A stretch of 15,739 bases of DNA from contig JBAXYM010000028.1 of assembly GCA_041670805.1 (NCBI GenBank), positions 1 to 15,739 on the forward strand, given 5' to 3'. The notes under the pieces were generated by a model that made no database searches, was not told where the DNA came from, and saw only the letters and a list, made by a program, of their open reading frames with translations. Within the stretch, counting starts at the first letter, position 1. The number at the start of each line of letters is the position of its first letter. Origin of the DNA: Patescibacteria group bacterium. GTDB taxonomy: Bacteria; Patescibacteriota; Minisyncoccia; JAHIHE01; JAGLIN01. The position numbers and the translations under genes are program-made. Shown piece by piece: positions 1 to 15,739 of this stretch.

Positions 1-1
1 C

Positions 2-436
2 AAGATGCTGGAAGGCCAGTTGAACGCTCTTCCGACGTACTACCTGAATCACAACGGGTATCCTGATACGTATTACTCGAAGGTCTCAATCCGCCACACG
101 GTATTAGAGGATGAAAATGCCAATCTCCAGAAAGCCACTCTTGGGGCAACGAACCGGTCTCTATCTATCAACGAGTGCCGCAAACTCTTAGGGTTCGAAC
201 CGCTCAACGATGATGACCTGACGAAGATAAACTCCGATTGGGACAAAATCGCGGTCCCTCAGGCGGCAGCATCCCCGTTCTCGTTCACGGATCAGAACTC
301 ACCTACAGTCTCGGCGTATCGGGTGCGGAATCGTATCGCAAACGAGGCTATCGTAGGGATGGAAGAGGCTACTGATGACTTTGAGCATGAGGTAAGGGGA
401 TTGTTGAGAAAGTATGCGGCAGAGACTAAGAAATGA
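2..436 (+). CDS. C-terminal part of the probable portal protein; the gene starts upstream of the window
   Basis: The reading frame is open from position 2, and the track ORF 5..436 is its Met-started portion. The stop overlaps the ATG of the next gene (ATGA at 433-436). The call rests on position only: it sits immediately upstream of a Mu gpF/SPP1 gp7-like gene, as portal genes do in SPP1-like modules. I recognise no sequence motif in it. Confidence 0.4.
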   Translation, partial: KMLEGQLNALPTYYLNHNGYPDTYYSKVSIRHTVLEDENANLQKATLGATNRSLSINECRKLLGFEPLNDDDLTKINSDWDKIAVPQAAASPFSFTDQNSPTVSAYRVRNRIANEAIVGMEEATDDFEHEVRGLLRKYAAETKK

Positions 437-1191
437 CATCCCTCGAAGCCGGTCTTGACAAGATAACCGCGAAATGGATTGAACGAATGACTGATTCCCT
501 TGTGTCTATCGCAGGGGAATCGTATTCTGCAGGTATGTTCCACGCAAGCACTCAGCTTAAGAGCGGCATATCATTTAAGGTCACTGAATCCGACGCCCTG
601 AAATACGCCGATGCATACGAGAAGAAGCTCGTTGAAACCGGTAAGATAGATGTAACAGAATATGTAAAGGACGCTGATGGAAAAGTGATTGGGTTCGAGA
701 CAAAAGAAATAGATTGGCTTGGTGATAAAGCGGTCGGAACAAGAAACTCACTCGCAGATATCATCAAGAAAGGCATCGCGGAAGGGAAACCAACCGGTCT
801 AAAAATCAGTTCGACTGGAAAGTATCCCAAAGGGTCTATTGCCGCTGACTTACAGGACACGTTCTCGGACTACAAAGGACAGGCTTCTTCTATCGCACGG
901 ACGGAGACCACGAAATGTTATTACAACGGCGAGACTGACCGGTACACCCGTGCCGGTGTTGAGTATGTTCAGCGGCTTGGCGATGAAACCGATGCATGCG
1001 ATATCTGCATGCCGCTAATAGGGCTGATATACAAGCTCGGGACTCAGCCCCCGCTTCCTACGCACCCTAACTGTCGTTGCGATTACCGCCCATATTTCCC
1101 AGAGGTAGGCGAGGTGTTTACAACCGCTTACGGCGAGAAGATGATGTTCACCGGGACGGAATACATCCACGCGATACCTGCCGCAGAGTAG
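433..1191 (+). CDS. Head morphogenesis / minor head protein, Mu gpF-SPP1 gp7 family
   Basis: The C-terminal half carries the characteristic motifs ...SSIARTETT..., an acidic DETDACDIC stretch and ...PPLPTHPNCRCDY... These correspond to the ARTE and HPNCRC signatures of the Phage_Mu_F domain. ATGA overlap with the upstream gene. The position after the portal gene fits. Confidence 0.8.
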   Translation: MTSLEAGLDKITAKWIERMTDSLVSIAGESYSAGMFHASTQLKSGISFKVTESDALKYADAYEKKLVETGKIDVTEYVKDADGKVIGFETKEIDWLGDKAVGTRNSLADIIKKGIAEGKPTGLKISSTGKYPKGSIAADLQDTFSDYKGQASSIARTETTKCYYNGETDRYTRAGVEYVQRLGDETDACDICMPLIGLIYKLGTQPPLPTHPNCRCDYRPYFPEVGEVFTTAYGEKMMFTGTEYIHAIPAAE

Positions 1192-1232
1192 TTTATCACG
1201 TGAATTTTTCTTTTTTTTATTAATAAATGTTC

Positions 1233-1287
1233 GTTTAGTTATATTTATATATTGATACTCCTAATAATATAGTATACAAAAACAAAC
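1233..1287 (+). promoter_or_regulatory. Conserved promoter-like element, copy 1: GTTTAGTTA..ATATATA..GATAC..AATAATATAGTATAC.AAAACAAAC
   Basis: An almost identical ~55-nt block recurs at 3404-3458, and a partial copy (TAATATAATATAC) at 4674-4686. Each lies in an A/T-rich gap directly upstream of a run of co-oriented genes. It is followed after a similar short spacing (about 10-16 nt) by GGTG(A/T)AAAG, then 9 nt later by an ATG. Confidence 0.55.
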
Positions 1288-1300
1288 GGTGAAAAGAAGA

Positions 1301-1498
1301 ATGGCAAAGTACACAATTACCCACGAATACCAATCTAGATTTGCATCTAGGTTTACAAAACAGAAGGCAGATGAGACCGTATATCAGCAACAATGCCATC
1401 AAATTATGATTAACGACTGGGAAAATAATATCCCTGTGGACCAGAAGAAAATGGAAAAACGAAAAGCCATCCTTGAGAAATGGAGAGAAATATTATGA
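1301..1498 (+). CDS. Hypothetical small basic protein, 65 aa from this ATG; the track calls an upstream GTG at 1289
   Basis: An ATG lies 9 nt downstream of the GGTG Shine-Dalgarno-like sequence that is conserved in the promoter-like block. The ORF ends in an ATGA overlap with the next ORF. I recognise no motif. Confidence 0.45.
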   Translation: MAKYTITHEYQSRFASRFTKQKADETVYQQQCHQIMINDWENNIPVDQKKMEKRKAILEKWREIL

Positions 1499-1725
1499 CA
1501 ACAGGATATTTTACCGTAACTGGAGATGCTAACAATTTAGTTGGGTGGACTACTGAAACATTAGCTGAGGCTCTGAGAATCCCTCTTGGAAAATTAGGTA
1601 TTGAGGTCACATGCATACCAAAGCAGTTTGGGGGCGTGTGCTATGTCCCTATAGACGATGAGACATCCCCGAGCGAAGACTACGTCCAATATGTTGTTGA
1701 GAGAGTTATTTGTCTTGGAAAGTAA
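1495..1725 (+). CDS. Hypothetical protein, 76 aa from the ATG at 1495; the track start at 1480 is also possible
   Basis: The ATG overlaps the upstream stop (ATGA) and GGAGAG lies 8-13 nt upstream. The ORF lies in the A/T-rich accessory region. No motif recognised. Confidence 0.45.
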   Translation: MTTGYFTVTGDANNLVGWTTETLAEALRIPLGKLGIEVTCIPKQFGGVCYVPIDDETSPSEDYVQYVVERVICLGK

Positions 1726-1737
1726 TGGTGGTTTGAA

Positions 1738-3342
1738 ATGACTTCTCCAATAGACTCATTTTACCCCACGCCAAAAACGCTCATCGACAAGATGCTATCT
1801 GGGATCAGTCTGACTGGGGTATATTCTATCCTCGAACCGTCTGCTGGGAAAGGCGACATTGTAGATGCACTTATCCCGAAACTGAAAGCGACATCGGGTC
1901 ATAGTTACGGGTGCGGATATGGTGAAACATACCGTCCCGACATCGACACGATAGAAATCAATCCCGACCTGCGGCACGTCTTGACCGGTAAGGGATACAG
2001 GGTTGTACACGATGACTTCCTGACATTCGAGACGTACAAGCATTACGATTTGATAATCATGAATCCTCCGTTTGCTTCGGGTGAGAAGCACTTGGAGAAG
2101 GCATTGGAACTCCAGAAAGATGGTGGTGCGGTAATCTGCATCCTCAACGCTGAAACGATTCGGAACCCTAACAACCTCACTAGAGTGAGAGTCAACGGGA
2201 TGTTAGACCAGTATGGAGCGAGCATCGAGTATCTCAGCGACGAGTTCAGGCAGGCCGAGCGGAAGACATGGGTAGAAATCGCATTAATCAAAGTCAGCAT
2301 CCCGGACGCCGATAAAGAGAGCATCATTATCAGCTCCCTGAAAAAGGTGAACGACGTTAGGATAATCCAGCCGGGAGAACCTACTGACCTGACAGAAGCG
2401 GATTACGTCAAAGCGACTATAACCCAGTTCCGGTTTGAGGCACAGGCAGGACTACAGCTGATACGGGACTACAAGAGCATGATGCCGTATCTCGCACTGT
2501 CAAAGGGTATTATCACCCTGGATTTCTACACTGAGAACAACGGTCGTAACTACCCTCCGAATGAAAACGAATACCTCAGGCGGGTCCGGGCCAAATACTG
2601 GGATACGCTGTTCCTATCCAAACAGTTCACGAAACAGTTCACGTCCAACCTCTTGAAAATATGCCATACTGATGTAGAGAGGTTGAAAGACTATGACTTC
2701 AATGAGTTCAATATAGGGGAGATCAGAATCAATCTTATCAACAAACTGACCAAAGCGACTGAGGACACAATCATTAAACTGTTCGACGAACTGTCAAACG
2801 AACATCACTGGTTCGATGAAATGTCTAAGAACATCCATTACTTCAACGGATGGAAGACCAACAAGGCGTGGATTGTTGGGAAGAAGGTAATCATCCCGTG
2901 CCATTTATATGATGTCATTGAGGATCTGCATTACTACGGAACATATGACCCTAGATTTGAGTTGTCCGATATTGAGAAAACCCTGAACTACCTGTCGAAT
3001 AAACCAAAACCGGTAGAGACCATCTACGAGGTAATAGACCGGGCACAAAAAACCCGGCAGACCCGTAATATCGAATCCCATTACTTCACGATTACGTGTT
3101 ATAAGAAGGGGACCGTGCATCTGACGTTCAAGGATGAGGAGTTACTCAAAAAATTCAACATCTTCGGAGCGCAGCATAAGGGGTGGCTGCCGCCATCATA
3201 CGGAAAGGTGGTCTATGATAACATGGAGCGGGATGAACGTGAGGTGGTTGACAGCTTCGAAGGGGAAGAGTCATACACCGAGACGATGAACAACGCGGGA
3301 TATTATTTATCCGGGGTAGAGTTATTGGATGCTGCCAAATGA
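1738..3342 (+). CDS. N6-adenine DNA methyltransferase, gamma class (TaqI/Eco57I-like), with a C-terminal domain of about 340 aa that is probably the target-recognition domain
   Basis: The N-terminus has motif X (FYPTP), motif I (ILEPSAGKGDIV) and motif IV (LIIMNPPF), in the order and spacing (X at ~10, I at ~32, IV at ~108) typical of gamma-class amino-MTases such as M.TaqI. GGTGG lies 7 nt upstream of the ATG. No nuclease domain or partner restriction endonuclease is visible. Confidence 0.85.
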   Translation: MTSPIDSFYPTPKTLIDKMLSGISLTGVYSILEPSAGKGDIVDALIPKLKATSGHSYGCGYGETYRPDIDTIEINPDLRHVLTGKGYRVVHDDFLTFETYKHYDLIIMNPPFASGEKHLEKALELQKDGGAVICILNAETIRNPNNLTRVRVNGMLDQYGASIEYLSDEFRQAERKTWVEIALIKVSIPDADKESIIISSLKKVNDVRIIQPGEPTDLTEADYVKATITQFRFEAQAGLQLIRDYKSMMPYLALSKGIITLDFYTENNGRNYPPNENEYLRRVRAKYWDTLFLSKQFTKQFTSNLLKICHTDVERLKDYDFNEFNIGEIRINLINKLTKATEDTIIKLFDELSNEHHWFDEMSKNIHYFNGWKTNKAWIVGKKVIIPCHLYDVIEDLHYYGTYDPRFELSDIEKTLNYLSNKPKPVETIYEVIDRAQKTRQTRNIESHYFTITCYKKGTVHLTFKDEELLKKFNIFGAQHKGWLPPSYGKVVYDNMERDEREVVDSFEGEESYTETMNNAGYYLSGVELLDAAK

Positions 3343-3356
3343 GGCGGTCTCCCAAT

Positions 3357-3412
3357 TACTAATTTAGTAGATATTAGTAATAGATTAGTAGTTGGTTAGT
3401 GGGGTTTAGTTA
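3357..3412. repeat. Five helically phased TTAGT(A/T) direct repeats; the first is embedded in the palindrome TACTAA-T-TTAGTA
   Basis: TTAGT occurs at 3364, 3374, 3385, 3396 and 3406, with spacings of 10, 11, 11 and 10 bp. The first unit is the perfect palindrome TACTAATTTAGTA at 3357-3369. The last unit (GTTTAGTTA) is the first part of promoter-like copy 2, and the same GTTTAGTTA opens copy 1. Confidence 0.6.
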
Positions 3413-3458
3413 CATATATATAGCGATACGTCCAATAATATAGTATACTAAAACAAAC
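3404..3458 (+). promoter_or_regulatory. Conserved promoter-like element, copy 2
   Basis: GTTTAGTTACATATATATAGCGATACGTCCAATAATATAGTATACTAAAACAAAC is near-identical to 1233-1287. It contains the 10-bp palindrome TAGTATACTA. It is followed by GGTGTAAAG and an ATG at 3478. Confidence 0.55.
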
Positions 3459-3477
3459 AAAAAAGGTGTAAAGAAAA

Positions 3478-3696
3478 ATGACCCAAACAGAATTAGACAA
3501 AATTAGCGAAATCTACGTTGAGAATCACGCAGAATTCTTAAGAGCCTGTGAAGATAATGACATGGAGGACATCAACCGTTACCGGTTAAACAAACGAACG
3601 ATCAGGAAATGCGCAAACGCATTACTTAGCACAGAAGACTGGGATGCATTTTACGCATTCACGGTAAAGGTAGATGTGAACTGGGCAGGGGATTAA
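3478..3696 (+). CDS. Hypothetical protein, 72 aa
   Basis: First gene after promoter-like copy 2. GGTG lies 9 nt upstream of the ATG. No confident motif. Confidence 0.5.
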   Translation: MTQTELDKISEIYVENHAEFLRACEDNDMEDINRYRLNKRTIRKCANALLSTEDWDAFYAFTVKVDVNWAGD

Positions 3697-3702
3697 AGGA
3701 AC

Positions 3703-4005
3703 ATGACAACTCAAATCCAGTATAACGGGGATTGCTTCACAAGCATCCTCTACCCATACTCTCAGATATGGGACAACGAGAATTCCCATATCGGGACGTC
3801 ATTCCGAAAAATGGATGAGTTTGAGTACTCCCTCCGGAACAAGATTGACACCCATGTGAAAAATGGCGAATCTGAAAAGTGTATTGTGGACTGGATCGCG
3901 TGGTATGTGTATCTGCGTATAGGGATGAATCTAACCGAAGCAGAAGCGTTCCGGTTGTCAGTATTTGGGAAGAAGTATCTTTATTCAAAGTATCAGGTGA
4001 GATGA
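3703..4005 (+). CDS. Hypothetical protein, 100 aa
   Basis: AAGGAA precedes the ATG, 6 nt after the previous stop. No motif recognised. Confidence 0.5.
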   Translation: MTTQIQYNGDCFTSILYPYSQIWDNENSHIGTSFRKMDEFEYSLRNKIDTHVKNGESEKCIVDWIAWYVYLRIGMNLTEAEAFRLSVFGKKYLYSKYQVR

Positions 4006-4093
4006 ATGAGATTATCGACATTGAGGATGGAATCAAGGCAGATGATAAAATTGAAGAGGTTGAATGCTATTTATGACAAAGAGGTAATACAAA

Positions 4094-4426
4094 ATGACTA
4101 AAAGAGAGAAAGACGCAGACATAACGATTATCATCCGAAAAGATGGTGACGCCTGGTTTGCACACGGACCATATTTCACCAATCTACAAGAAAGTGATGC
4201 CGAGTGGGGTCACACCCCAGAAGAGGCAGCGGTGAGGTATATCGTTGCTACCAAACCAAGCAGATGTGAAACATGCAAGAAATTTGAACGCCAAGATAAA
4301 ATGTTCGCTACGTATGTGTGCGTCGGTGGATTACTCGAAAATGAAAGAGTTATTGTTGATCCCCAGCGTATGGCGTGCGAAAAATGGGAGGAGCAATTAC
4401 CTACTGAGGTAGATTATGACAAATAA
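4094..4426 (+). CDS. Hypothetical protein, 110 aa. The N-terminal half resembles the HicB/UPF0150 fold pattern, and the C-terminal half has a CxxC...C...C arrangement that might bind zinc
   Basis: AGAGGT lies 9 nt upstream of the ATG. The segment ITIIIRKDGDAWFAHGPYFTNLQESDAEWGHTPEEAAVRYIVA follows the HicB-like pattern: hydrophobic strand, D-G-x-aromatic, P-x-x-P/G, then T-x-EEA-x-x-x-x-I. This is a pattern resemblance only. Confidence 0.5.
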   Translation: MTKREKDADITIIIRKDGDAWFAHGPYFTNLQESDAEWGHTPEEAAVRYIVATKPSRCETCKKFERQDKMFATYVCVGGLLENERVIVDPQRMACEKWEEQLPTEVDYDK

Positions 4427-4574
4427 CCGGGACCAAATGAAGCAGAGAATCGTTGAGATGGTTGAATCTCTGCATCCTATGTCCGATTCGTCAATAGATA
4501 ATAACAAGTTGTGGATTATCGATAGGGACTATCTCGCCAAAGTTAAGCCTTTTGAATTAAACAAAAAGTTATAA
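4416..4574 (+). CDS. Possible small ORF, 52 aa (MTNNRDQMKQRIVEMVESLHP...), absent from the ORF track
   Basis: Its ATG overlaps the end of the upstream gene in another frame. It fills the otherwise non-coding 4427-4574 stretch and ends just before the intergenic regulatory region. No motif. Confidence 0.25.
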   Translation: MTNNRDQMKQRIVEMVESLHPMSDSSIDNNKLWIIDRDYLAKVKPFELNKKL

Positions 4575-4595
4575 CCATCTCTGTTTTTCAACCTA

Positions 4596-4608
4596 TTACA
4601 AATTGTAA
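4596..4608. promoter_or_regulatory. Perfect palindrome TTACAA-A-TTGTAA, a candidate operator
   Basis: 6-bp inverted repeat with a 1-nt spacer in the intergenic region upstream of the structural operon. Confidence 0.3.
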
Positions 4609-4634
4609 CACCACCTGACCTGCATATAAGCGCC

Positions 4635-4687
4635 TTGACTTGCAGGGGGTATCGCGCATATATACTTTATGGGTAATATAATATACT
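4635..4687 (+). promoter_or_regulatory. Sigma70-like promoter (TTGACT, 18-nt spacer, TATATA) followed by promoter-like element copy 3 (TAATATAATATAC, 4674-4686)
   Basis: TTGACT lies at 4635-4640 and TATATA at 4659-4664. The inverted repeat CCTGCA(4617-4622)/TGCAGG(4641-4646) overlaps the -35 hexamer. The 13-nt core motif matches copies 1 and 2 at 12 of 13 positions. It abuts the GTG start at 4688. Confidence 0.4.
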
Positions 4688-5809
4688 GTGCCTGACGAAC
4701 AAGAAGAAGCTATTTTCGGGAATACTACCTGTGTTTTCAGTAAATCAGTCGGCGCATTTTCAGACACTACTTTGCAGACCCTCGATAGGAGAGTCGGCGA
4801 CAAGAAGATAATACTAGGAAAGGATTTGTTTGCCCAGACTGTGGGCGATTGGGAAGGCATCCCAATCATCTATCAGCGTCAGGGTGTTCATCCCCTTGAT
4901 TTTGAAGGTATCGCACATAATCCAGCTGAGACTGCCAAGAAGATTGGCGGGGTCTTCGTTGGACACGTGAAGAGCCCTAGAATCGAAGTGGGAGGGCATC
5001 CCCGATTGAAGGCAACCCTCGATATCAACGACCTGTATTCCGAGATATCAGGGCTGTATAACAAAGGAGTTTTGGGGATATCATCCGCGTTCATGTCAAG
5101 GAACGACGGTGACAAGATAACTTCCCCCCCAAAACCGAACCATGTCCTCTTGTTTGAAGAAGTGATTGATAAGGTGCAACCAGGAGATCCCGGTGCATTA
5201 GTCCACACGGAAATCATGACAGAAGAAAAACCAACCAAGAAGGTAAAGATGCCTTTTGTGGAGTGGGTGCATTCGCTGGTGAAATCTGATATTGCAGAAT
5301 CTCAGAAGTCTCCCAACGTATCACATGTAGAAAATCCCCCCACCGAGACTAAAGTACCTGTAACCAATTCCGAAACAACCATGCCAGAACTAATTACCCC
5401 GGCAACCCCGGGCCAGGCAGAAGCTACACCTGAGTTAAAAACTCTCACTGAGGCTCTTGCACAGAGGGACGCTAAAATCGCAGAACTCGAGAAGACTATT
5501 GCTGACCTGAAATCTCAGGGTTCAGAAGTGAACACTCTTCGCACTGAACTTGCTCAGTATAAAGAGAAGGAAGCAGAACACAAATTCACCGCGTTCCTTG
5601 ATTCCGTCCCAGTTGGAATGAAATCCACGCCGGAACAGGTCGCTGAACTGAAACTAAAGTTCACGAGTGACCCAGCATCGCTGTTGACCAAGATCATCAA
5701 CACATACAAAGAGAGCGGAGAAACCCGCAAGGTTGGAGAACCGTTCACACACACGGAATCTCAGCCTCTTACCGGTGTTGGCGACCTTACCAAAATCCCG
5801 AGGAACTGA
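4688..5809 (+). CDS. Prohead protease (HK97 gp4/S78-like N-terminal domain) fused to a scaffolding-like coiled-coil C-terminal domain
   Basis: The N-terminal segment ~60-130 has ...GIAHNPAETAKKIGGVFVGHV... (His followed by IGxV) and ...KGVLGISSAFMS... (the G-x-S-x-x-F serine motif), which resemble the catalytic His and Ser motifs of phage prohead proteases. The C-terminal ~170 aa is rich in E/K/A/L with heptad-like stretches (AQRDAKIAELEKTIADLKSQ...), typical of scaffolds. It sits between the head-morphogenesis and capsid genes. It has a GTG start with no SD and the promoter-like motif immediately upstream, so the start is uncertain. Confidence 0.55.
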   Translation: MPDEQEEAIFGNTTCVFSKSVGAFSDTTLQTLDRRVGDKKIILGKDLFAQTVGDWEGIPIIYQRQGVHPLDFEGIAHNPAETAKKIGGVFVGHVKSPRIEVGGHPRLKATLDINDLYSEISGLYNKGVLGISSAFMSRNDGDKITSPPKPNHVLLFEEVIDKVQPGDPGALVHTEIMTEEKPTKKVKMPFVEWVHSLVKSDIAESQKSPNVSHVENPPTETKVPVTNSETTMPELITPATPGQAEATPELKTLTEALAQRDAKIAELEKTIADLKSQGSEVNTLRTELAQYKEKEAEHKFTAFLDSVPVGMKSTPEQVAELKLKFTSDPASLLTKIINTYKESGETRKVGEPFTHTESQPLTGVGDLTKIPRN

Positions 5810-5813
5810 TTAA

Positions 5814-6371
5814 ATGACAGGAGAATCATACAACACCGCGCCGAACGGCAACATCGTTGTCCGCGGCAAACCAGAGACTAAAGTCGAGAAGATTCTTACG
5901 GAAGCCGTGCTCCCGGGACATCTCCTCCAGATTGACTCAAACGACTACAAAGCGAAACTCCACGACGGCTCTTTTGCCTCTGGTGCAGGATGTATCGGAT
6001 GGGCTGGATTCGAGGATGCAAGTCCGAACGTCAGACCTGACACCTACGATACCGCATATGTCAGCGGGAATGTCATTCCGGTTCTGTCAGGCGGCAGCTT
6101 CGACATCTATGCCATCGCAATCGGTGAAGCCGTTGGCGGTGCAGCTGTTACTATCACGGCAGGAGATCTGCTTACGTCCAATGGTGACGGAACCCTGAAA
6201 CTGTCCTCGCTCGCAGTCACCATTACCCAGTCTGGAGAAACTCCGTTCGCAGTATCCGCGGCAACACTGCCCGCCCGTCCTGTTGCAAGAGCGCTTGAGA
6301 CCGTCGTAATCGCAGTATCCACAACCGCAACCCCGAACACCGCACGTATCCACGTGACGTCACTGGTCTAA
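5814..6371 (+). CDS. Capsid accessory protein, possibly a decoration/cement-like protein; function uncertain
   Basis: GAGGAA lies 9 nt upstream of the ATG. It lies between the scaffold and the major capsid gene, the position of lambda gpD and SPP1 gp12. The sequence is Gly/Ala/Ser/Thr/Val-rich and looks beta-strand rich. No specific motif recognised. Confidence 0.4.
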   Translation: MTGESYNTAPNGNIVVRGKPETKVEKILTEAVLPGHLLQIDSNDYKAKLHDGSFASGAGCIGWAGFEDASPNVRPDTYDTAYVSGNVIPVLSGGSFDIYAIAIGEAVGGAAVTITAGDLLTSNGDGTLKLSSLAVTITQSGETPFAVSAATLPARPVARALETVVIAVSTTATPNTARIHVTSLV

Positions 6372-6386
6372 GGAGGAAAATAAACC

Positions 6387-7325
6387 ATGCCTACAATCAA
6401 CGAAACCCCGCTTACCCGTGCCGCAACCCAGATGAGCACAGAAATCATTCCTGTACTCAGAAACTCTCTTGTTGGCCGCCGGTTCATGAGCATCAACCCT
6501 TACATGAAAGGGGATGGTCTGACCAATCTAGAAGTTACTAAAATCTCTGACCTGTCGGACGCGTTTGTCCAGTATTCACTGCCAGACGGTTCGGAACATT
6601 CCGATTCACTGGTAGCATCTGCTGAAATCGTCAAAGTCCCGGTTCTGTTCAAGAACTTCTCGGTCAAGATGCAGGATATTCTCACATGGGAAAACCGTAC
6701 CGTATCCCCGGGGGCTACTAACAGCCTAGACTCTCTTACCTCTCTGACAGCGAGTCTCAAGGTAGCTGAGCAGGAAGAAGAGCTTCTGTTCAATGGCTGG
6801 AAACCCGATGGGACCACATATGCCATCAAAGGTATGAACCAGATTGCCGGAAACTCCGTTACTGGTGGGTCTATTGCAACTGCGGGAACGATGTATGGAT
6901 ACATCGGTGAAGCTATCGGTAAACTGATGGCAGATAAGGTAAAAGGTGAAGGCGATTCGTACAACCTCGCAATCACGTCCACCATCTACACGAAACTGAT
7001 CACTCGTATCATGACCAATGGTACCCCTGAAATTGAATACATCAAGAAACTGCTCGGGAACGGCAGCATCTATGTTACCGATACCCTCGCACTACAGGGA
7101 GGAAGCAGCAAGGAAGCAGCAATTGTTACCCCGGTCGATACCAGCAGGGTTCATTTCGAACTGCTGAACCCGGTCGACTACAAGATTGTTCTCGCAAACC
7201 CTGAGTTTGAAGGTCTTTCCCCGGTCAAGGGTGTGTCATACGAACTGATATCCCCATACTTCAAGCGTCTGAATTCAAGTTCATTATGTGACGCCGTCTG
7301 TAAAATTACCTCACTGGAAGTCTAG
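6387..7325 (+). CDS. Major capsid protein, 312 aa, no delta domain
   Basis: It has the strongest SD in the window: AAGGAGG 8 nt upstream of the ATG. Its size and position match an SPP1-type module: after scaffold and decoration, before the connector proteins. Family membership is not verified. Confidence 0.6.
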   Translation: MPTINETPLTRAATQMSTEIIPVLRNSLVGRRFMSINPYMKGDGLTNLEVTKISDLSDAFVQYSLPDGSEHSDSLVASAEIVKVPVLFKNFSVKMQDILTWENRTVSPGATNSLDSLTSLTASLKVAEQEEELLFNGWKPDGTTYAIKGMNQIAGNSVTGGSIATAGTMYGYIGEAIGKLMADKVKGEGDSYNLAITSTIYTKLITRIMTNGTPEIEYIKKLLGNGSIYVTDTLALQGGSSKEAAIVTPVDTSRVHFELLNPVDYKIVLANPEFEGLSPVKGVSYELISPYFKRLNSSSLCDAVCKITSLEV

Positions 7326-7335
7326 AGGCATTCCC

Positions 7336-7722
7336 GTGGTAACTGCTGCTGATGTGTTGTTATGGACGGATTTGACGATACCCGAGGTTATCGTCACTGC
7401 TTTCTCCGAGGATGCAGTTGAGCGTCTAATTCAGGACGGCGTAAACAACATCTCCGGCACAACACGAACAAAAGCCCTTTGTTACCTTGTTGCGGCGTCA
7501 TATCAGGCAAGAGGGGATTCGTCAGGATTCCAATCCGAAAACATAGGGGGATATAGTTACTCTAAAAAAGTAACTAAATCCTCAGTATCCCACTGGATTG
7601 ATCTGTATCATGAAATCCTACCGGAGACTGTAGCCGGGGGAGGGTCAGCATCGACAATGTCAGGGTCAGCCACACGTGTTGACACCACGGTTGTCGCTTT
7701 GAACTGGAGGGTCTTTAGATGA
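7336..7722 (+). CDS. Head-tail connector/adaptor protein, gp6-SPP1 gp15-like
   Basis: The GTG at 7336 is preceded by GAGG and does not overlap the capsid gene, unlike the track ATG at 7288, which lies inside it. The N-terminal pattern ...AADVLLWTDLTIPEVIVTAFSEDAVERLIQDGVNNISG... and the mid-region ...SENIGGYSYS... resemble the gp6-like head-tail connector family. The stop overlaps the next ATG (ATGA). Confidence 0.55.
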   Translation: MVTAADVLLWTDLTIPEVIVTAFSEDAVERLIQDGVNNISGTTRTKALCYLVAASYQARGDSSGFQSENIGGYSYSKKVTKSSVSHWIDLYHEILPETVAGGGSASTMSGSATRVDTTVVALNWRVFR

Positions 7723-8072
7723 ATAATCTTTTGTGCCACACTGCGGCAGTCAGCAAGAATGTTGACACTGTGGTCAATGGTCGAACAACGCATGTTGATA
7801 CCCCGCTTGGGTCTGTGTCGTGCCGGTTCACTCAGCCGAAAACATCTCTGGTCTCATTAGTCTCGACTGCCACAATAGAAAAGGTCGATGCCGTCATTTT
7901 TACCGGTCCGGATTATCTGGGTCTGGTTGGAACCACTATCCCAATCAAACTGGTAACAACCGATGAAGGATGGAGTGGTACATACACCATGAAATATCCT
8001 CCTCGTGTATATTCGGGATATGGCAACTCGGTCCACCACGTTGAGTTTGATGTGTGGAAGATGGTTGCATGA
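7719..8072 (+). CDS. Head closure / head-tail joining protein, SPP1 gp16-like
   Basis: 117 aa, directly after the connector gene with an ATGA overlap. Size and position match. Motif-level support is weak. Confidence 0.45.
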   Translation: MNNLLCHTAAVSKNVDTVVNGRTTHVDTPLGSVSCRFTQPKTSLVSLVSTATIEKVDAVIFTGPDYLGLVGTTIPIKLVTTDEGWSGTYTMKYPPRVYSGYGNSVHHVEFDVWKMVA

Positions 8073-10331: not shown

Positions 10332-10654
10332 GATTACCCTCGGCTGATTATCTGAACATAATCATCCCCGTCTGTCAGGTGTTCGGATGGACCCCCGATG
10401 AAATCAACCGGAGACTTACCTTGACTGAACTTATGATTTATCACCGTTCTGCTGTAGAATCGCAACGACGAGACCGTGAAGAAATCGCTATGCTTACGGC
10501 CATAACCATGAATGGAAAGTTAGGCGAGTATCTATCTAAGAGTAAGAGGGAAGGAAGACAGACTCCCGACCGCGTGGACGAGTCCCCTGATATTGAGGGG
10601 TTCCGGTCATTGTGCGGGGCACATTTTAAGAAATCATCATCAAAGGAGACCTAA
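10322..10654 (+). CDS. Tail assembly chaperone T-like extension, expressed as a G-T fusion by a -1 frameshift; the track shows its GTG-started part from 10379
   Basis: The frame is -1 relative to the 9990 ORF and open from the slippery site to a stop at 10652-10654, which overlaps the tape measure ATG. The predicted junction is ...SEK-K-LRLPSADYLNIIIPVCQVFGWTPDEINRR... Confidence 0.55.
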   Translation, partial: KKLRLPSADYLNIIIPVCQVFGWTPDEINRRLTLTELMIYHRSAVESQRRDREEIAMLTAITMNGKLGEYLSKSKREGRQTPDRVDESPDIEGFRSLCGAHFKKSSSKET

Positions 10655-13209
10655 TGCCAGACACAGTAGTTGACCGGATGGTTGTCGAACTTGAAACCAA
10701 TCTCGATGAAGCATTACGAGGATTTGACAAAGCGGAACAGGCGTCTGATGATCTTGAACGGCAACTTGAGGATGTTGAAAAACAGTCGAAAAAGACCGCT
10801 ACATCTATAGATAAGGCGGGGTCAGAATCAAAAGGCACTGCAAAAGATGTAGATAAACTGACGAAATCAGCGAAGGATGAGGGGACGGCTGCCAAGAACG
10901 CAGGGGACAAAACCGAACAAGCCGGTAATGAAATCGAGAAAACAGGTAATAAATCCAAGAATGCCGCAAATAAAAACGAGTCCCTCATAACGTCGTTTAA
11001 GAACATGTCTATCGGGGGGGTCGCGGTTATTGCCGCTATTACCGCAATTGTTACGGCGGTTATAAAAATCGGGGAAGCTGCGGTAGAGTCTGCGACAAAG
11101 TTCGAAAAGTCCATGGCGCAGATACAGATTGCTACCGGAGCGACCGGCGCAAATCTCGAGGGACTTGAGGATGTCATCAGTAATATCTACGGGTCATTCC
11201 CCGCGGATATTGAGACCATTACCACGGTTGTCGGGGATCTGAACACCGCATATGGATTGCAGGGAGACGAGTTAGAATCACTGTCAAGGACATACTTATC
11301 CCTCGCAAAGGTAACTGGGGGTGATGTATCCAGTCAGATTGAAACCACGAGGGAAATATTCAACAAGTTTGGAGTGGCTGTCGAAGACCAAGCTGAATAT
11401 CTCGCCTACTTCAACGACGTATCTCAGGATACAGGTGTTGGATTAGAAGACCTCCTATCTCTGCTTGCAGAAGGGGACCGGGGATTTCAGCTATTGGGAT
11501 TGGACGCGAAACAATCTGCCGACGTTATCGGCAATGCGGTTAAAAAGGATAGTCTGTCCTCGGCTCAAGAACTGGTTACCGCGTTGGAAACCGGTCTGGC
11601 AAAAATAGCTGGAACATCTGAGGCGGTGGTAAAGTCTACTGAAACTGCATTAGCCTCCGCAAACGAAGAGTATGCGAAGATAGTTTCGTCTGATACTACG
11701 GATGCTATCGATGCGGCACTACTATCTAAGGAAAAAGCAATAGAGGCATACAATACTGCCATCGCATCTGGTGATGTTAGTGCATTATCCTCGACCTCTG
11801 CGGCACTATACACTGCCAATGAGGTATATGAAGCGGCTATCCAAGATAGAACGGATGCTATCACAGAGGCTAAGAACAACCAGATAAAAGCCCAGAAAGA
11901 ATACGATACCGCATTAGTCGGGATATCGGGGAGCGCGATAGAATCCGAACTGCTGAGGACTATCGAGCTGATGAAACAGGCTGAGACCGAAGGGGATGCT
12001 CTTGTCATAGGTATGGATGTGTTTGGCAGGACACTCAGCGGGAAAGTGGCCGGGGCATTGTTTGGGGGAGTTCTGGATGTTGACCTAACGGAGTCTACAT
12101 ACGAGAGTATCAAATCGATTGAGCAACTTGTCGAAGAGACAATCACTCTGGACGATAAGATGCTCATGCTCAAAGCGGATGTTGATAAAGCTCTTAGACC
12201 TTTGGGGGATATACTGCTTGATGAATTTGACAAAGCCCAGCCGTCCATAGAAAAGGCCTTATACTGGGTTAACTTGTTCTTTGAGAACTTCGACAAGGTT
12301 AAGGAGATTGGCGTAACATTCATCCCAATGTTCCACATTATGGATACTCTATCCGGATGGTTCTCTGAAAACGGGTCTGAGGTCATTGAGTATCTGGTCA
12401 TCATCCTATCGAAGATGAATGATATTGGGGGCGACAGTGGAGGGGTAATGAACATACTGCAAACCATCTGGGGTTTCGTCGACACCTACATCTTAACGAT
12501 GCTGGATTCTCTTATGATATTCCTTGCGCTTCTTGCAGGGGATACGGATACCGCACTACTAAAAACATACGAAGTCGCGATAAGATGGGGCAATACATTC
12601 GGGAAACTGGTCGAAGGCGGTATCAATGGGATATTAGGGCAGATAAGCAACGCGGGGAATTCGGTTCTTGATTTTACCGATAGTATCGCGAATGGGGTTA
12701 TAGACCTGTTTGAAGGGGCGGTCAATTCGGTGATTAATGCGATAAACTCCATGATATCCGCATATAATTCCGTGGCGAGCGCACTTAGTATGCCTACCCT
12801 ATCTTTGATATCTACGGTTAAATTCGAGGATGTGAAACACGAAGAAATAGATCTAGAATATTCGGGCATTAGTGATGCATTGTCACAGATGGAACAGAAA
12901 TATGCCGATTTACAGTCAGAGGTTGATTACCGCAAGGAGTTAAGCGCCGCACTGAAAGAGGCGGAAAAATCAGGTGATACTAGTAAGGCAGAAGAAATCA
13001 AAACTATAATTGAACAGCTCAATGTCTCGGGATTACTGAGCGGAACGAGTACCGATACAGAAGACTCAGACATTTACACCCAGGCGAATACTTCGCAGGG
13101 GGTAGTTATTCAGGGAGACCTGGTTGTTAACTCCCCTGCCGCGGATGCTACTACAATGATGAACACGACAAAACGCACACTCCGTAATCTCGGAACACAG
13201 GTGGTCTAA
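10654..13209 (+). CDS. Tape measure protein, 851 aa
   Basis: It is the largest gene and follows the chaperone pair. The N-terminal region is K/E/A-rich and coiled-coil-like. There is a hydrophobic segment (MSIGGVAVIAAITAIVTAVIKIG) and ~27-aa periodic repeats (EEYAKI / EAYNTAI / EVYEAAI / KEYDTAL). It is low-complexity Ala/Ser/Thr-rich throughout, and AGGAG lies 7 nt upstream. Confidence 0.85.
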   Translation: MPDTVVDRMVVELETNLDEALRGFDKAEQASDDLERQLEDVEKQSKKTATSIDKAGSESKGTAKDVDKLTKSAKDEGTAAKNAGDKTEQAGNEIEKTGNKSKNAANKNESLITSFKNMSIGGVAVIAAITAIVTAVIKIGEAAVESATKFEKSMAQIQIATGATGANLEGLEDVISNIYGSFPADIETITTVVGDLNTAYGLQGDELESLSRTYLSLAKVTGGDVSSQIETTREIFNKFGVAVEDQAEYLAYFNDVSQDTGVGLEDLLSLLAEGDRGFQLLGLDAKQSADVIGNAVKKDSLSSAQELVTALETGLAKIAGTSEAVVKSTETALASANEEYAKIVSSDTTDAIDAALLSKEKAIEAYNTAIASGDVSALSSTSAALYTANEVYEAAIQDRTDAITEAKNNQIKAQKEYDTALVGISGSAIESELLRTIELMKQAETEGDALVIGMDVFGRTLSGKVAGALFGGVLDVDLTESTYESIKSIEQLVEETITLDDKMLMLKADVDKALRPLGDILLDEFDKAQPSIEKALYWVNLFFENFDKVKEIGVTFIPMFHIMDTLSGWFSENGSEVIEYLVIILSKMNDIGGDSGGVMNILQTIWGFVDTYILTMLDSLMIFLALLAGDTDTALLKTYEVAIRWGNTFGKLVEGGINGILGQISNAGNSVLDFTDSIANGVIDLFEGAVNSVINAINSMISAYNSVASALSMPTLSLISTVKFEDVKHEEIDLEYSGISDALSQMEQKYADLQSEVDYRKELSAALKEAEKSGDTSKAEEIKTIIEQLNVSGLLSGTSTDTEDSDIYTQANTSQGVVIQGDLVVNSPAADATTMMNTTKRTLRNLGTQVV

Positions 13210-14437: not shown

Positions 14438-15739
14438 ATGGTCCTTCCTGACCTTTATCCCTCGCAGGTGGGTTCCCCATATACCACACTTGCTGCATCA
14501 TATACAACCCTTGGTACAACTATGTCATTAGTGGACGCGACAAAACTACCGAATGCCCCCAACATTGTTTGTTTATCGGGGGCTGTCTCAGGTGAGTTCC
14601 GATACACGGGGAAAAGCGGCAATGATTTGACAGGAGTATCTAAGTTAGAGGGGACTCCCTCTGCTACTTGGGCGGCAGGGACGTATGCATTCCGCGGGAT
14701 TGCTGCCTATGATATGACATCCCTCCAAACAAGGGCATCTGCGTTGCAGGAACAGGTTGATTTCATGAATCAACTGAACTCTCCCATTATCGGCGTAATG
14801 TGGGATACCAATTCAACAAGCAATATTCTAACTCGCATTGATGCCGCGGGTAATACACTCCCAGCAATGACATCTTCTGACTTTGACAAGCACATCCTTT
14901 GGGGAGGTCGCTGGAGGTGCACGCGGAATCGGACAACCGGGATATACACGTTCGGCACAAACCCTAGAGGTGACGGACTGACACTGGACGGGACAGCTGG
15001 CGACGTGACAGTTAGCGAGCCAATCGTGTACGCCAAAGCGGATTACGGTGTTGCAGGTGCGGGTATTGGTCGGTATTGGGTATCCCCAAGACCTGTCGCA
15101 GGGTTTACCGTGCATCCGTTATGGATGCAGAGGAACAATGGAATTGCATCTCCAGTTGTCTATTCCGGGGCGTATGAATCGTATGGGTACCTAGACGGAA
15201 GCACGTTTAAGCTTGGGTCAGCATCCGGGAAAGTTCCCGTAACCGGCGGTGTTGCATATCCCAACCTCCCGAACACTGGTAGATTTACCATGGACGATGC
15301 CGAACATTACGCGAACAACATCACCGGCACTATCAAAAGCGGATGCGAAAACATCTGGAATACTCCTGCATCCCAACTACTGATGTACATCGAATACGCT
15401 ACGACTGACCTCCAGACCGCACTCGGGAAAGGAGTTGTCGATTTACCATCTGGAACGGGTTTCGCTGGAAAGAACACGGGAGCTGATGATATCGATTCGC
15501 GTCTGGCAGAAAACGGCACTGGTACCGGGTCAGGCACAAATGGACAGACGCCTATCTGCTGGCGTGGGAAAGAGAACCCGTATGGGAATTGTCTCAAGTA
15601 CAACATCGGCGCGAACTTTTACCTCGATGGGTCAGTACGGCTATTGAAACGTGATGGGACTGGCACACCGTCGGCAACACTTGCGGCAGGGTCGTATGAA
15701 ACTGTCACCGGACCTGCTGGTTTGACAAATGGGTATATA
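14438..15739 (+). CDS. Large tail protein, tail fibre/Tal/receptor-binding candidate, 5' part only; the ORF runs off the window end
   Basis: My manual translation from the ATG at 14438, 1 nt after the upstream TAG, has no stop through 15739, which is more than 430 codons (MVLPDLYPSQVGSPYTTLAASYTTLGTT...). GGTGGTG lies upstream. It is not in the ORF track because it lacks a stop inside the window. The minus-strand track ORFs in this span are therefore taken as spurious. Its position after Dit and its Gly/Thr/Ser-rich composition fit a fibre or baseplate protein. Confidence 0.55.
   Translation, partial: MVLPDLYPSQVGSPYTTLAASYTTLGTTMSLVDATKLPNAPNIVCLSGAVSGEFRYTGKSGNDLTGVSKLEGTPSATWAAGTYAFRGIAAYDMTSLQTRASALQEQVDFMNQLNSPIIGVMWDTNSTSNILTRIDAAGNTLPAMTSSDFDKHILWGGRWRCTRNRTTGIYTFGTNPRGDGLTLDGTAGDVTVSEPIVYAKADYGVAGAGIGRYWVSPRPVAGFTVHPLWMQRNNGIASPVVYSGAYESYGYLDGSTFKLGSASGKVPVTGGVAYPNLPNTGRFTMDDAEHYANNITGTIKSGCENIWNTPASQLLMYIEYATTDLQTALGKGVVDLPSGTGFAGKNTGADDIDSRLAENGTGTGSGTNGQTPICWRGKENPYGNCLKYNIGANFYLDGSVRLLKRDGTGTPSATLAAGSYETVTGPAGLTNGYI

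Follow-up and report, generated by a model that had tools for sequence, protein, structure and literature searches.

The interval between positions 1192 and 4687 of a 15,739-nucleotide (nt) stretch of DNA from an uncultivated tailed virus (contig JBAXYM010000028.1, assembly GCA_041670805.1; "the window" is this whole stretch) holds one gene for a 534-aa methyltransferase and seven small open reading frames (ORFs), arranged as two units. The reading we favor, with a probability of roughly 0.7, is that this block would be a hyperplastic accessory locus at a transcription-unit boundary, consisting of two cassettes of the lineage's own early cargo, each headed by a promoter-like element that we call the P-element. 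We observed that the contents of the junction vary among relatives, that the cargo is found at another address in some of them, that the P-element forms a family of copies, and that gene relics lie beside it.

The window covers the virion module of a genome of the siphovirus type. The original prediction had set the borders of the block at 1191, where a MuF-like minor head gene ends, and at 4688, where a scaffold gene starts, and PHROG and Pfam matches together with gene position agreed with both. The MuF-like gene (433-1191, plus strand, 252 amino acids [aa]) matched PHROG 115, minor head protein, at 1.5e-18, and its Pfam Phage_Mu_F match of 6.4e-5 was under the curated cut-off. The scaffold (possibly protease-scaffold) gene (4688-5809, plus strand, 373 aa, GTG start at 4688) gave weak scaffold and head-maturation-protease PHROG matches, confined to its coiled-coil C-terminal part; it is placed as expected, ahead of a decoration-like gene and the major capsid gene, and is syntenic with all relatives. 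All genes of the block, and all signals described in and around it below, are on the plus strand shared with the structural genes.

Relatives were located through the MuF protein and their MuF-scaffold junctions were then read. Six contigs from several metagenomes (L001-L006) are more than 99.6% identical to the window, which makes them uninformative on gain versus loss of the block, and a further contig, L020, also belongs to the window virus; other comparison contigs came from biogas-fermenter metagenomes. In L008-L010 (MuF 56% identical) MuF and scaffold genes are adjacent, with 338 bp of non-coding DNA between them. The junction of L031 (MuF 55%) is occupied by one GT2 glycosyltransferase gene (Pfam 1e-30), and that of L011 (MuF 48%, major capsid protein [MCP] 62%) by two small ORFs behind a P-element, unrelated to those of the window. 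The closest distinct relative, L021 (MuF 88%, scaffold 80%, MCP 91%), has a 1.4-kb insert with, in order, an 82-aa ORF, a 54-aa ORF, a homologue of the window's orf76 (67%) and a 96-aa ORF. It has neither the methyltransferase nor any unit 2 gene, and orf76 is the sole cargo in common. Nucleotide homology between the window and L021 ends at the MuF stop codon (1167) and is back at 4581-4596. With junction contents that differ and homology with L021 that breaks in this way, 1192-4687 is a hypervariable accessory locus and not a core feature, and its 3.5-kb filling is specific to the window virus. The glycosyltransferase of L031 (L031:9650-10669, on a contig binned with Methanomicrobiales) is another class of accessory cargo at the same site.

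These junctions bear directly on the possibility that the small ORFs are core genes of the head module, that is, lineage-specific factors for head assembly or decoration. In its favor, the block is on the structural-gene strand throughout and fixed in all near-identical contigs, and some SPP1-like phages have small genes at this position; in SPP1 itself, genes 7 and 11 are separated by the small genes 8-10. Yet the junction is empty in L008-L010 and differently filled in L031, L011 and L021 despite conserved scaffold and capsid genes, cargo genes lie in the early region of L013, and one of the ORFs is a fragment of an enzyme gene. We consider this explanation hardly credible.

The claim that the two units are each headed by the same promoter-like element was verified as a 55-nt direct repeat (D1) at 1233-1287 and 3404-3458, 85% identical. 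Its 15-nt core has two exact occurrences and one 3-mismatch copy at 4672-4686, and only 2 of 200 shuffled sequences reached three matches. From a 13-copy alignment (A4) we defined the P-element as a promoter-like element plus leader of about 70 nt, with the consensus ATTAGTAAC-TATTATATAC-TGATACGTCCAAT-NATATATTATAC-(A-rich leader)-AGGTGAAAA-N-ATG. Copy 1 (1233-1300; nhmmer E 2.4e-10) comprises a TTAGT block, the TATA-like TTTATATA at 1244-1251, the core AATAATATAGTATAC at 1263-1277, an A-rich leader and the Shine-Dalgarno sequence GGTGA at 1288-1292, ahead of the ATG at 1301. Copy 2 (3404-3477; nhmmer E 8e-14) has the TATA-like ATATATATA at 3414-3422, the core at 3434-3448, then leader, Shine-Dalgarno AGGTG and the ATG at 3478.

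The window virus has at least five copies: one before an ArdC-N gene (L001:2823), the two that head the units of the block (L001:9493 and L001:11662) and two at the start of the non-structural region (L020:17449 and L020:18668). There are 6-7 copies in L013, two in L021 and two in L011; the profile found none in more distant relatives and 0 matches in 100 shuffled sequences, and the core pattern was not found in IMG/VR. No copy is on the non-coding strand, and each is directly followed by a GGTG Shine-Dalgarno sequence and start codon, with one exception, the L013 copy before the homologue of orf110, which has a leader of about 110 nt. The methyltransferase operon is headed by a P-element in the window virus, L013 and L011 (3/3), and L013, like the window, has another just after the methyltransferase stop codon. 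Within the structural region of the window virus, about 20 kb, P-elements occur in the block alone, and on this basis the block looks like two non-structural units inside the morphogenesis module, co-regulated with ArdC-N. From its position, orientation and conservation the P-element may act as a promoter, perhaps with early timing.

We then asked where the cargo came from. The methyltransferase region (window 1726-3328) has 76% nucleotide identity with L013:7989-9585, and the first part of orf110 (4081-4281) has 80% with L013:9760-9960. The two L013 genes are direct neighbors, in an early, non-structural region that shares further genes with the window virus, encoding a CxxCxxCC protein (61%) and an ArdC-N protein (83%). 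The L118 methyltransferase (71%) is found beside a C5-methylase and a PD-(D/E)XK protein among replication genes, and that of L015 (53%) between a primase gene and a terminase gene; only one other methyltransferase, in L016, was found between MuF and scaffold genes. Judging by this comparison, the cargo probably came out of the non-structural region of this same lineage and not from outside it.

Base composition had been read the other way. As predicted, the windowed G+C profile was not uniform: G+C is 0.428 in 1192-4687 versus 0.488 in the rest of the window, and every other 3.5-kb window from 4688 on has 0.464-0.500. What lowers the value is A/T-rich intergenic DNA, in three stretches with 0.20-0.39, and the small ORFs, with 0.37-0.44. 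Together with promoter-like elements of the block's own and a very large, taxonomically wide methyltransferase family (over 6,557 homologues, from phages of many types), in which horizontal movement is clear at deep time scales, this could speak for a foreign moron, a block captured as an anti-defense island from an unrelated genome, whether host or distant phage. But low G+C failed as a sign of foreign origin: the virus's other small non-structural genes have the same G+C as the block (0.40-0.46), and third-position G+C of the methyltransferase gene (0.60) equals that of the structural genes. These values agree with an origin inside the lineage. Furthermore, the nearest homologues of the methyltransferase and orf110 genes (76-80% nt) are in L013, which shares early genes with the window virus, the promoter-like elements are the lineage's own, and none of the small ORFs matched an anti-defense or defense-related model. 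Capture from an unrelated genome is in our estimate unlikely.

Morons, in the sense of Hendrix and Juhala, are extra DNA in the late region of lambdoid and other temperate phages, with their own promoter, deviant composition and non-structural cargo. The block resembles them in lying between genes that are adjacent in relatives, in the late morphogenesis region, with its own promoter-like element, a composition that differs from its neighbors and non-structural cargo. It differs from them in being two multi-gene units rather than one gene, in having no clear flanking intrinsic terminator, in sharing its composition with the virus's own accessory genes and in drawing its promoter from the virus's own family. 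No integrase was seen in the genome parts examined. The moron label of the original prediction therefore fits as far as an accessory, mobile, self-promoted block goes, the junction being variable in relatives, and falls away where it implied foreign origin from composition.

With the lineage's own early region as the preferred source, a plausible course of assembly can be outlined. Cargo would have been transferred from one virus module to another, out of the early region and into the head module, through recombination between P-element copies during co-infection by related viruses, and illegitimate joins would in addition have left gene relics. The first such relic is orf65 (1301-1498), the 3' end of a PAPS-reductase/DUF3440 (IbrA-like) gene: over 61 codons it shares 79% of its amino acids, and along 149 nt 79% of its nucleotides, with the C-terminal end of P0126, a protein of 360 aa (PF01507+PF11922; L017:7466-7651), and it is fused directly to the P-element leader and start codon. 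Compared with the full-length gene, synonymous divergence (dS) is saturated, and dN/dS is uninformative. A second relic is found in L021, where the P-element in front of the orf76 homologue is closely preceded by a 3' piece of a tRNA-Met gene; the piece matches an intact tRNA upstream of a P-element in L013. By their sequences, orf65, the tRNA-Met relic and a deleted methyltransferase gene in L011 are the products of repeated cut-and-join events next to the P-element. On the basis of these events, and in view of the parallel with PeSL, we propose that the P-element may serve as a homology patch for cassette exchange.

PeSL are mobile regulatory cassettes that go with hyperplastic regions in T4-type phages (PMC2839356; PMC4122927). 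PeSL too are short promoter-containing motifs in many copies per genome, 5' of variable genes, and the motif delimits what close relatives have inserted, deleted or replaced; the composite of a stem-loop followed by a promoter motif is likewise matched at 3352-3477 of the window. Compared with PeSL, the virus type and motif sequence are different, the P-element includes a 5' leader and Shine-Dalgarno sequence, one of the two window copies lacks a stem-loop, recombination at the P-element is deduced, and the P-element would have carried early-type units into a structural module.

Several points weigh against this account of the locus. Every contig more than 99.6% identical to the window carries the block, and within the virus species it is fixed. 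Recombination at the P-element is deduced from the positions of its copies; no recombinant pair with both crossovers inside P-elements was found, and the right border of the block is a palindrome and not a P-element. Four or five relatives are all there is to indicate the direction of transfer, out of the early region and into the head module. The P-element is called a promoter by its position, orientation and conservation only, and the sigma-70 consensus does not fit it. The matches of the methyltransferase to the PDB are weak (E about 1e-3). Finally, a concatenated homologue search with the small ORFs, which returned the orf65 match alone, cannot show absence of homologues, because it missed the known relatives of orf76 and orf110.

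The main gene of the block (1738-3342) encodes what appears to be an orphan DNA methyltransferase of 534 aa. Its Pfam DUF4942 (PF13708) match of 7.4e-33 (114.3 bits versus a gathering cut-off of 25) covers residues 281-482, and it matched the PADLOC MTase_II/oMTase (Type II/orphan) models and PHROG 32703 (1.2e-43). An N-terminal core dependent on S-adenosylmethionine (SAM) is followed by about 330 C-terminal residues that include DUF4942. Across 32 homologues (alignment A3) there is little or no variation in the motifs FYPTP (aa 8-12), EPSAGKG (33-39) and NPPF (109-112). We take the order X (FxTP), I (SAM-binding, GxG), IV (NPPF/Y) and C-terminal target-recognition region to be that of gamma-class N6-adenine enzymes. 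The window protein has this gamma-class order as far as its motifs can tell, its NPPF suggests N6-adenine specificity, and DUF4942 would, in our reading, sit where gamma-class enzymes carry the target-recognition domain. DUF4942 is uncharacterized, and the four papers found to name it do so in passing.

At E<=1e-10 the family counts over 6,557 homologues, which share this architecture and are about 530-550 aa long; many also match the Dam family PF05869, which the window protein itself does not reach in the Pfam scan. In the PDB, weak sequence matches were to rRNA methyltransferases and, with the family profile, to 7vru, a solved adenine-specific DNA methyltransferase (E 0.0014). We call the enzyme an orphan because no nuclease partner was detected in its unit; the nuclease and restriction models of Pfam, PADLOC and NCBIfam had no match among the neighboring ORFs, a search that small novel nucleases could escape. 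Like the Dam enzymes of T4, T1 and P1 (PF05869), it is a stand-alone methyltransferase with no partner nuclease and an NPPF catalytic motif; the difference is that the window protein falls below PF05869. Most likely it would methylate the replicated viral genome, such that progeny DNA resists host restriction, and self-methylation of this kind is a plausible protection of the viral DNA. The anti-restriction or anti-defense role foreseen for the block is thus a reasonable inference for the methyltransferase; nothing assigns such a role to the small ORFs, one of which is a relic.

The deleted methyltransferase gene of L011 (L011:3666-4532), located ahead of the terminase gene, is an open derivative of 288 aa. 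It has lost residues 46-277 in frame, including the catalytic NPPF, and its first 45 residues and DUF4942 are intact. It hints either at a recent deletion or at a DUF4942 able to function alone.

The position of the methyltransferase gene close to the MuF gene raised another possibility, that the enzyme is made with the head proteins, packaged in the capsid, injected and active on entry. Iyer et al. in 2017 reportedly described fusions of MuF and methyltransferase domains (polyvalent proteins), and the N-terminal domain of the window enzyme matches PHROGs of giant proteins (772-3,431 aa), some annotated as DNA methyltransferase. The L016 methyltransferase likewise lies between MuF and scaffold genes. 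Against these likenesses, the window enzyme has no MuF domain and is the product of a separate gene, and T-runs, a promoter-like element of its own unit and two ORFs lie between MuF and methyltransferase. In L013, L118, L015 and L011 the gene is among early or replication genes. None of 80 methyltransferase loci in IMG/VR had a detectable MuF gene within 8 kb, a count obtained with a narrow MuF profile, and there is no family-wide linkage of the kind that polyvalent proteins would suggest. A functional tie between methyltransferase and MuF, with separate genes and 0/80 loci linked, was not supported, and we rate packaging of the enzyme as very unlikely.

L016 is an unrelated, myovirus-type contig in which small genes fill about 7 kb between MuF and scaffold (L016:3536-12852). 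These small genes include a DUF4942 methyltransferase gene whose product is 54% identical to that of the window, and a weak P-element-like sequence (E 0.42) occurs just 3' of it. The MuF-scaffold junction may be a general hot spot for accessory genes.

The small ORFs had been described as belonging to no recognizable family. None of the seven matched Pfam, PHROGs, NCBIfam or PADLOC, so that no structural annotation came out of these searches, and the count of one orphan methyltransferase and seven small ORFs in two units stands; what has to be amended is orf65, a fragment of a known gene family. In unit 1, orf65 is followed by orf76 (1495-1725), 67% identical in aa to L021:2822-3046, which is likewise behind a P-element. 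Unit 2 begins with orf72 (3478-3696), without a match in the four libraries and the sole member of its 90% cluster. The product of orf100 (3703-4005) is predicted to be a helical bundle (AlphaFold2, single sequence, pLDDT 69), and its model had no match among PDB folds at E<=0.001. A tiny ORF within 4002-4101 could encode 24 aa (4002-4076) or 31 aa (4006-4101), and gene callers chose the 31-aa frame. The last gene of the unit, orf52 (4416-4574), has no significant family match. For the six intact small ORFs nothing was found that either supports or excludes an anti-defense role, and the block has no Rfam families or tRNAs.

The remaining unit 2 gene, orf110 (4094-4426), encodes a conserved N-terminal domain and a Cys-containing C-terminal part. 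The domain (aa 11-52) is predicted to be beta-beta-beta-alpha (AlphaFold2 with alignment, pLDDT >94 for residues 11-50). At 56% aa and 80% nt identity, orf110 has its homologue at L013:9773-10099, directly 3' of the L013 methyltransferase gene. Among 1.8e9 representatives the domain had 34 matches, three of them over the full length; no Pfam family and no PDB fold was matched. A HicB-like fold had been considered for orf110 and was dropped when the PDB fold search gave no match. Linkage of orf110 to the methyltransferase outside this lineage was found at 0 of 80 loci. A second gene of the window virus, outside the window at L001:180-575, carries the same N-terminal domain (profile E 2e-20), from which we conclude that the domain is duplicated within the virus genome.

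We also looked for signals at the borders of the block. Just after the MuF stop codon, a T5 and a T8 run (1205-1209 and 1211-1218) form the left border, 1205-1218. Together with a run at 4584-4588 on the right, they make up three of the five T5+ runs of the window. There is no G+C-rich hairpin ahead of the left-border runs and no canonical intrinsic terminator flanking the block; the left-border runs possibly mark the end of the upstream transcription unit and might act as its terminator. The right border (4584-4608), where homology with L021 restarts, consists of the T5 run at 4584-4588 and, at 4596-4608, the perfect palindrome TTACAAATTGTAA, which occurs once in the window and twice in L021 and could be an operator. 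After the methyltransferase gene and directly 5' of P-element copy 2 is an A/T-rich stem-loop (3352-3410, arms 3352-3369 and 3378-3395) with five TTAGT repeats at 3364, 3374, 3385, 3396 and 3406, spaced by 10, 11, 11 and 10 nt. The stretch 3352-3395 folds at -18.7 kcal/mol (z -2.3), and copy 1 has no counterpart (z 0.42). This structure would be a terminator or an array for regulator binding. In L013 (6492-7060), ahead of the methyltransferase operon and its P-element, there are about 570 bp of tandem repeats of about 60-70 nt in two alternating variants, an array that may be iteron-like or a replication origin.

The region upstream of the scaffold gene (4642-4687) has a conserved GCAGGGGG at 4642-4649 and the TATA-like ATATATAC at 4658-4665, 22 nt ahead of the GTG at 4688, with no Shine-Dalgarno sequence (alignment A5, five relatives). 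Comparison of window 4596-4687 with L021:3400-3540 and L011:11560-11630 placed ATATATAC about 20-23 nt before the scaffold GTG or ATG in all three, with a spacer that is not conserved. This arrangement suggests a leaderless scaffold mRNA.

The labels of metagenome-assembled genomes (MAGs) conflict on the host: contigs of the window virus were binned in Candidatus Nanoarchaeia and Patescibacteria MAGs and a relative in a Methanomicrobiales MAG. Large-terminase matches are taxonomically scattered and uninformative on the host, and the window-virus lineage is not described in a paper on methanogen viruses (PMC9796341). A TATA-like box with constant spacing to a start codon that has no Shine-Dalgarno sequence, the lack of a sigma-70 fit, unit ends with T-runs and no hairpins, and the lack of a recognized endolysin (no endolysin family was recognized in the annotated genome parts) are compatible with an archaeal host and not decisive. 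T-runs on the coding strand, tested as a sign of archaeal termination, were not depleted relative to shuffles. We give an archaeal host about an even chance. On the doubtful side, and offered tentatively, is the further reading that the P-element is an archaeal-type promoter (B-recognition element [BRE]/TATA, a spacer of about 23 nt, initiator and short leader) in a virus of anaerobic-digester archaea, with a leaderless GUG scaffold mRNA and P-elements as portable recombination linkers.

Should the archaeal reading be true, promoter-leader units of about 70 nt would shuttle early-type operons, a DNA-modification cassette among them, both into the head module and back out, which would amount to PeSL-like modular shuffling in an archaeal tailed virus. 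An archaeal host would also make of these elements a ready-made set of natural viral promoters and an instance of promoter-mediated module shuffling in archaeal viruses. Under the accessory-locus reading, which we prefer, the window gives a clear sequence-level record of accessory genes entering a conserved virion-assembly module: one junction with five fillings, cargo at another address in relatives, a boundary element and gene fragments. It also provides a member of the very large, uncharacterized DUF4942 methyltransferase family in a context suited to tests of specificity and anti-restriction. Morons, hyperplastic regions and orphan phage methylases are known kinds, and current understanding is not overturned; the accessory hot spot itself is fairly ordinary, and the interest lies in the unusually clear assembly record and the possible archaeal-promoter reading.

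The rest of the window holds the other genes of the virion module. It opens with the C-terminal end of a portal gene (5-436), and beyond the scaffold gene it has a decoration-like gene of 185 aa, the HK97/linocin-type major capsid gene (6387-7325), neck genes and a major tail protein gene, then the tape measure gene (10654-13209) and a Dit gene. The 50,697 phage records searched had no match either to window positions 1-8000 (DNA search) or to the major capsid protein (tblastn), and when IMG/VR was scanned with a capsid-protein alignment, the only relatives found were 25-28% identical. The identical MCP protein is annotated at NCBI as "family 1 encapsulin nanocompartment shell protein". Since portal, scaffold and tail genes surround 6387-7325, we conclude that the public records are misannotated and that the protein is a viral HK97-fold capsid.

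The MuF gene of a sibling contig (L002:7874-9454, >99% identical) encodes 526 aa versus 252 in the window. An insert of 274 aa with intein hallmarks (CFLPGT...LTSN|C) interrupts the conserved HPNC|RC motif, and its Pfam Intein_splicing match of 1.1e-4 is under the cut-off. Several cluster members are 524-529 aa long, from which it follows that intein-containing and intein-free MuF alleles coexist.

A diversity-generating retroelement is located just beyond the window (L020:10463-13602). It comprises a tail-region gene of 479 aa that begins at window position 14522, a variable repeat (L020:11799-11894), a template repeat (L020:12264-12385) that differs from the variable repeat mainly at template adenines, and a reverse transcriptase gene (L020:12628-13602; RVT_1, 6.7e-17).

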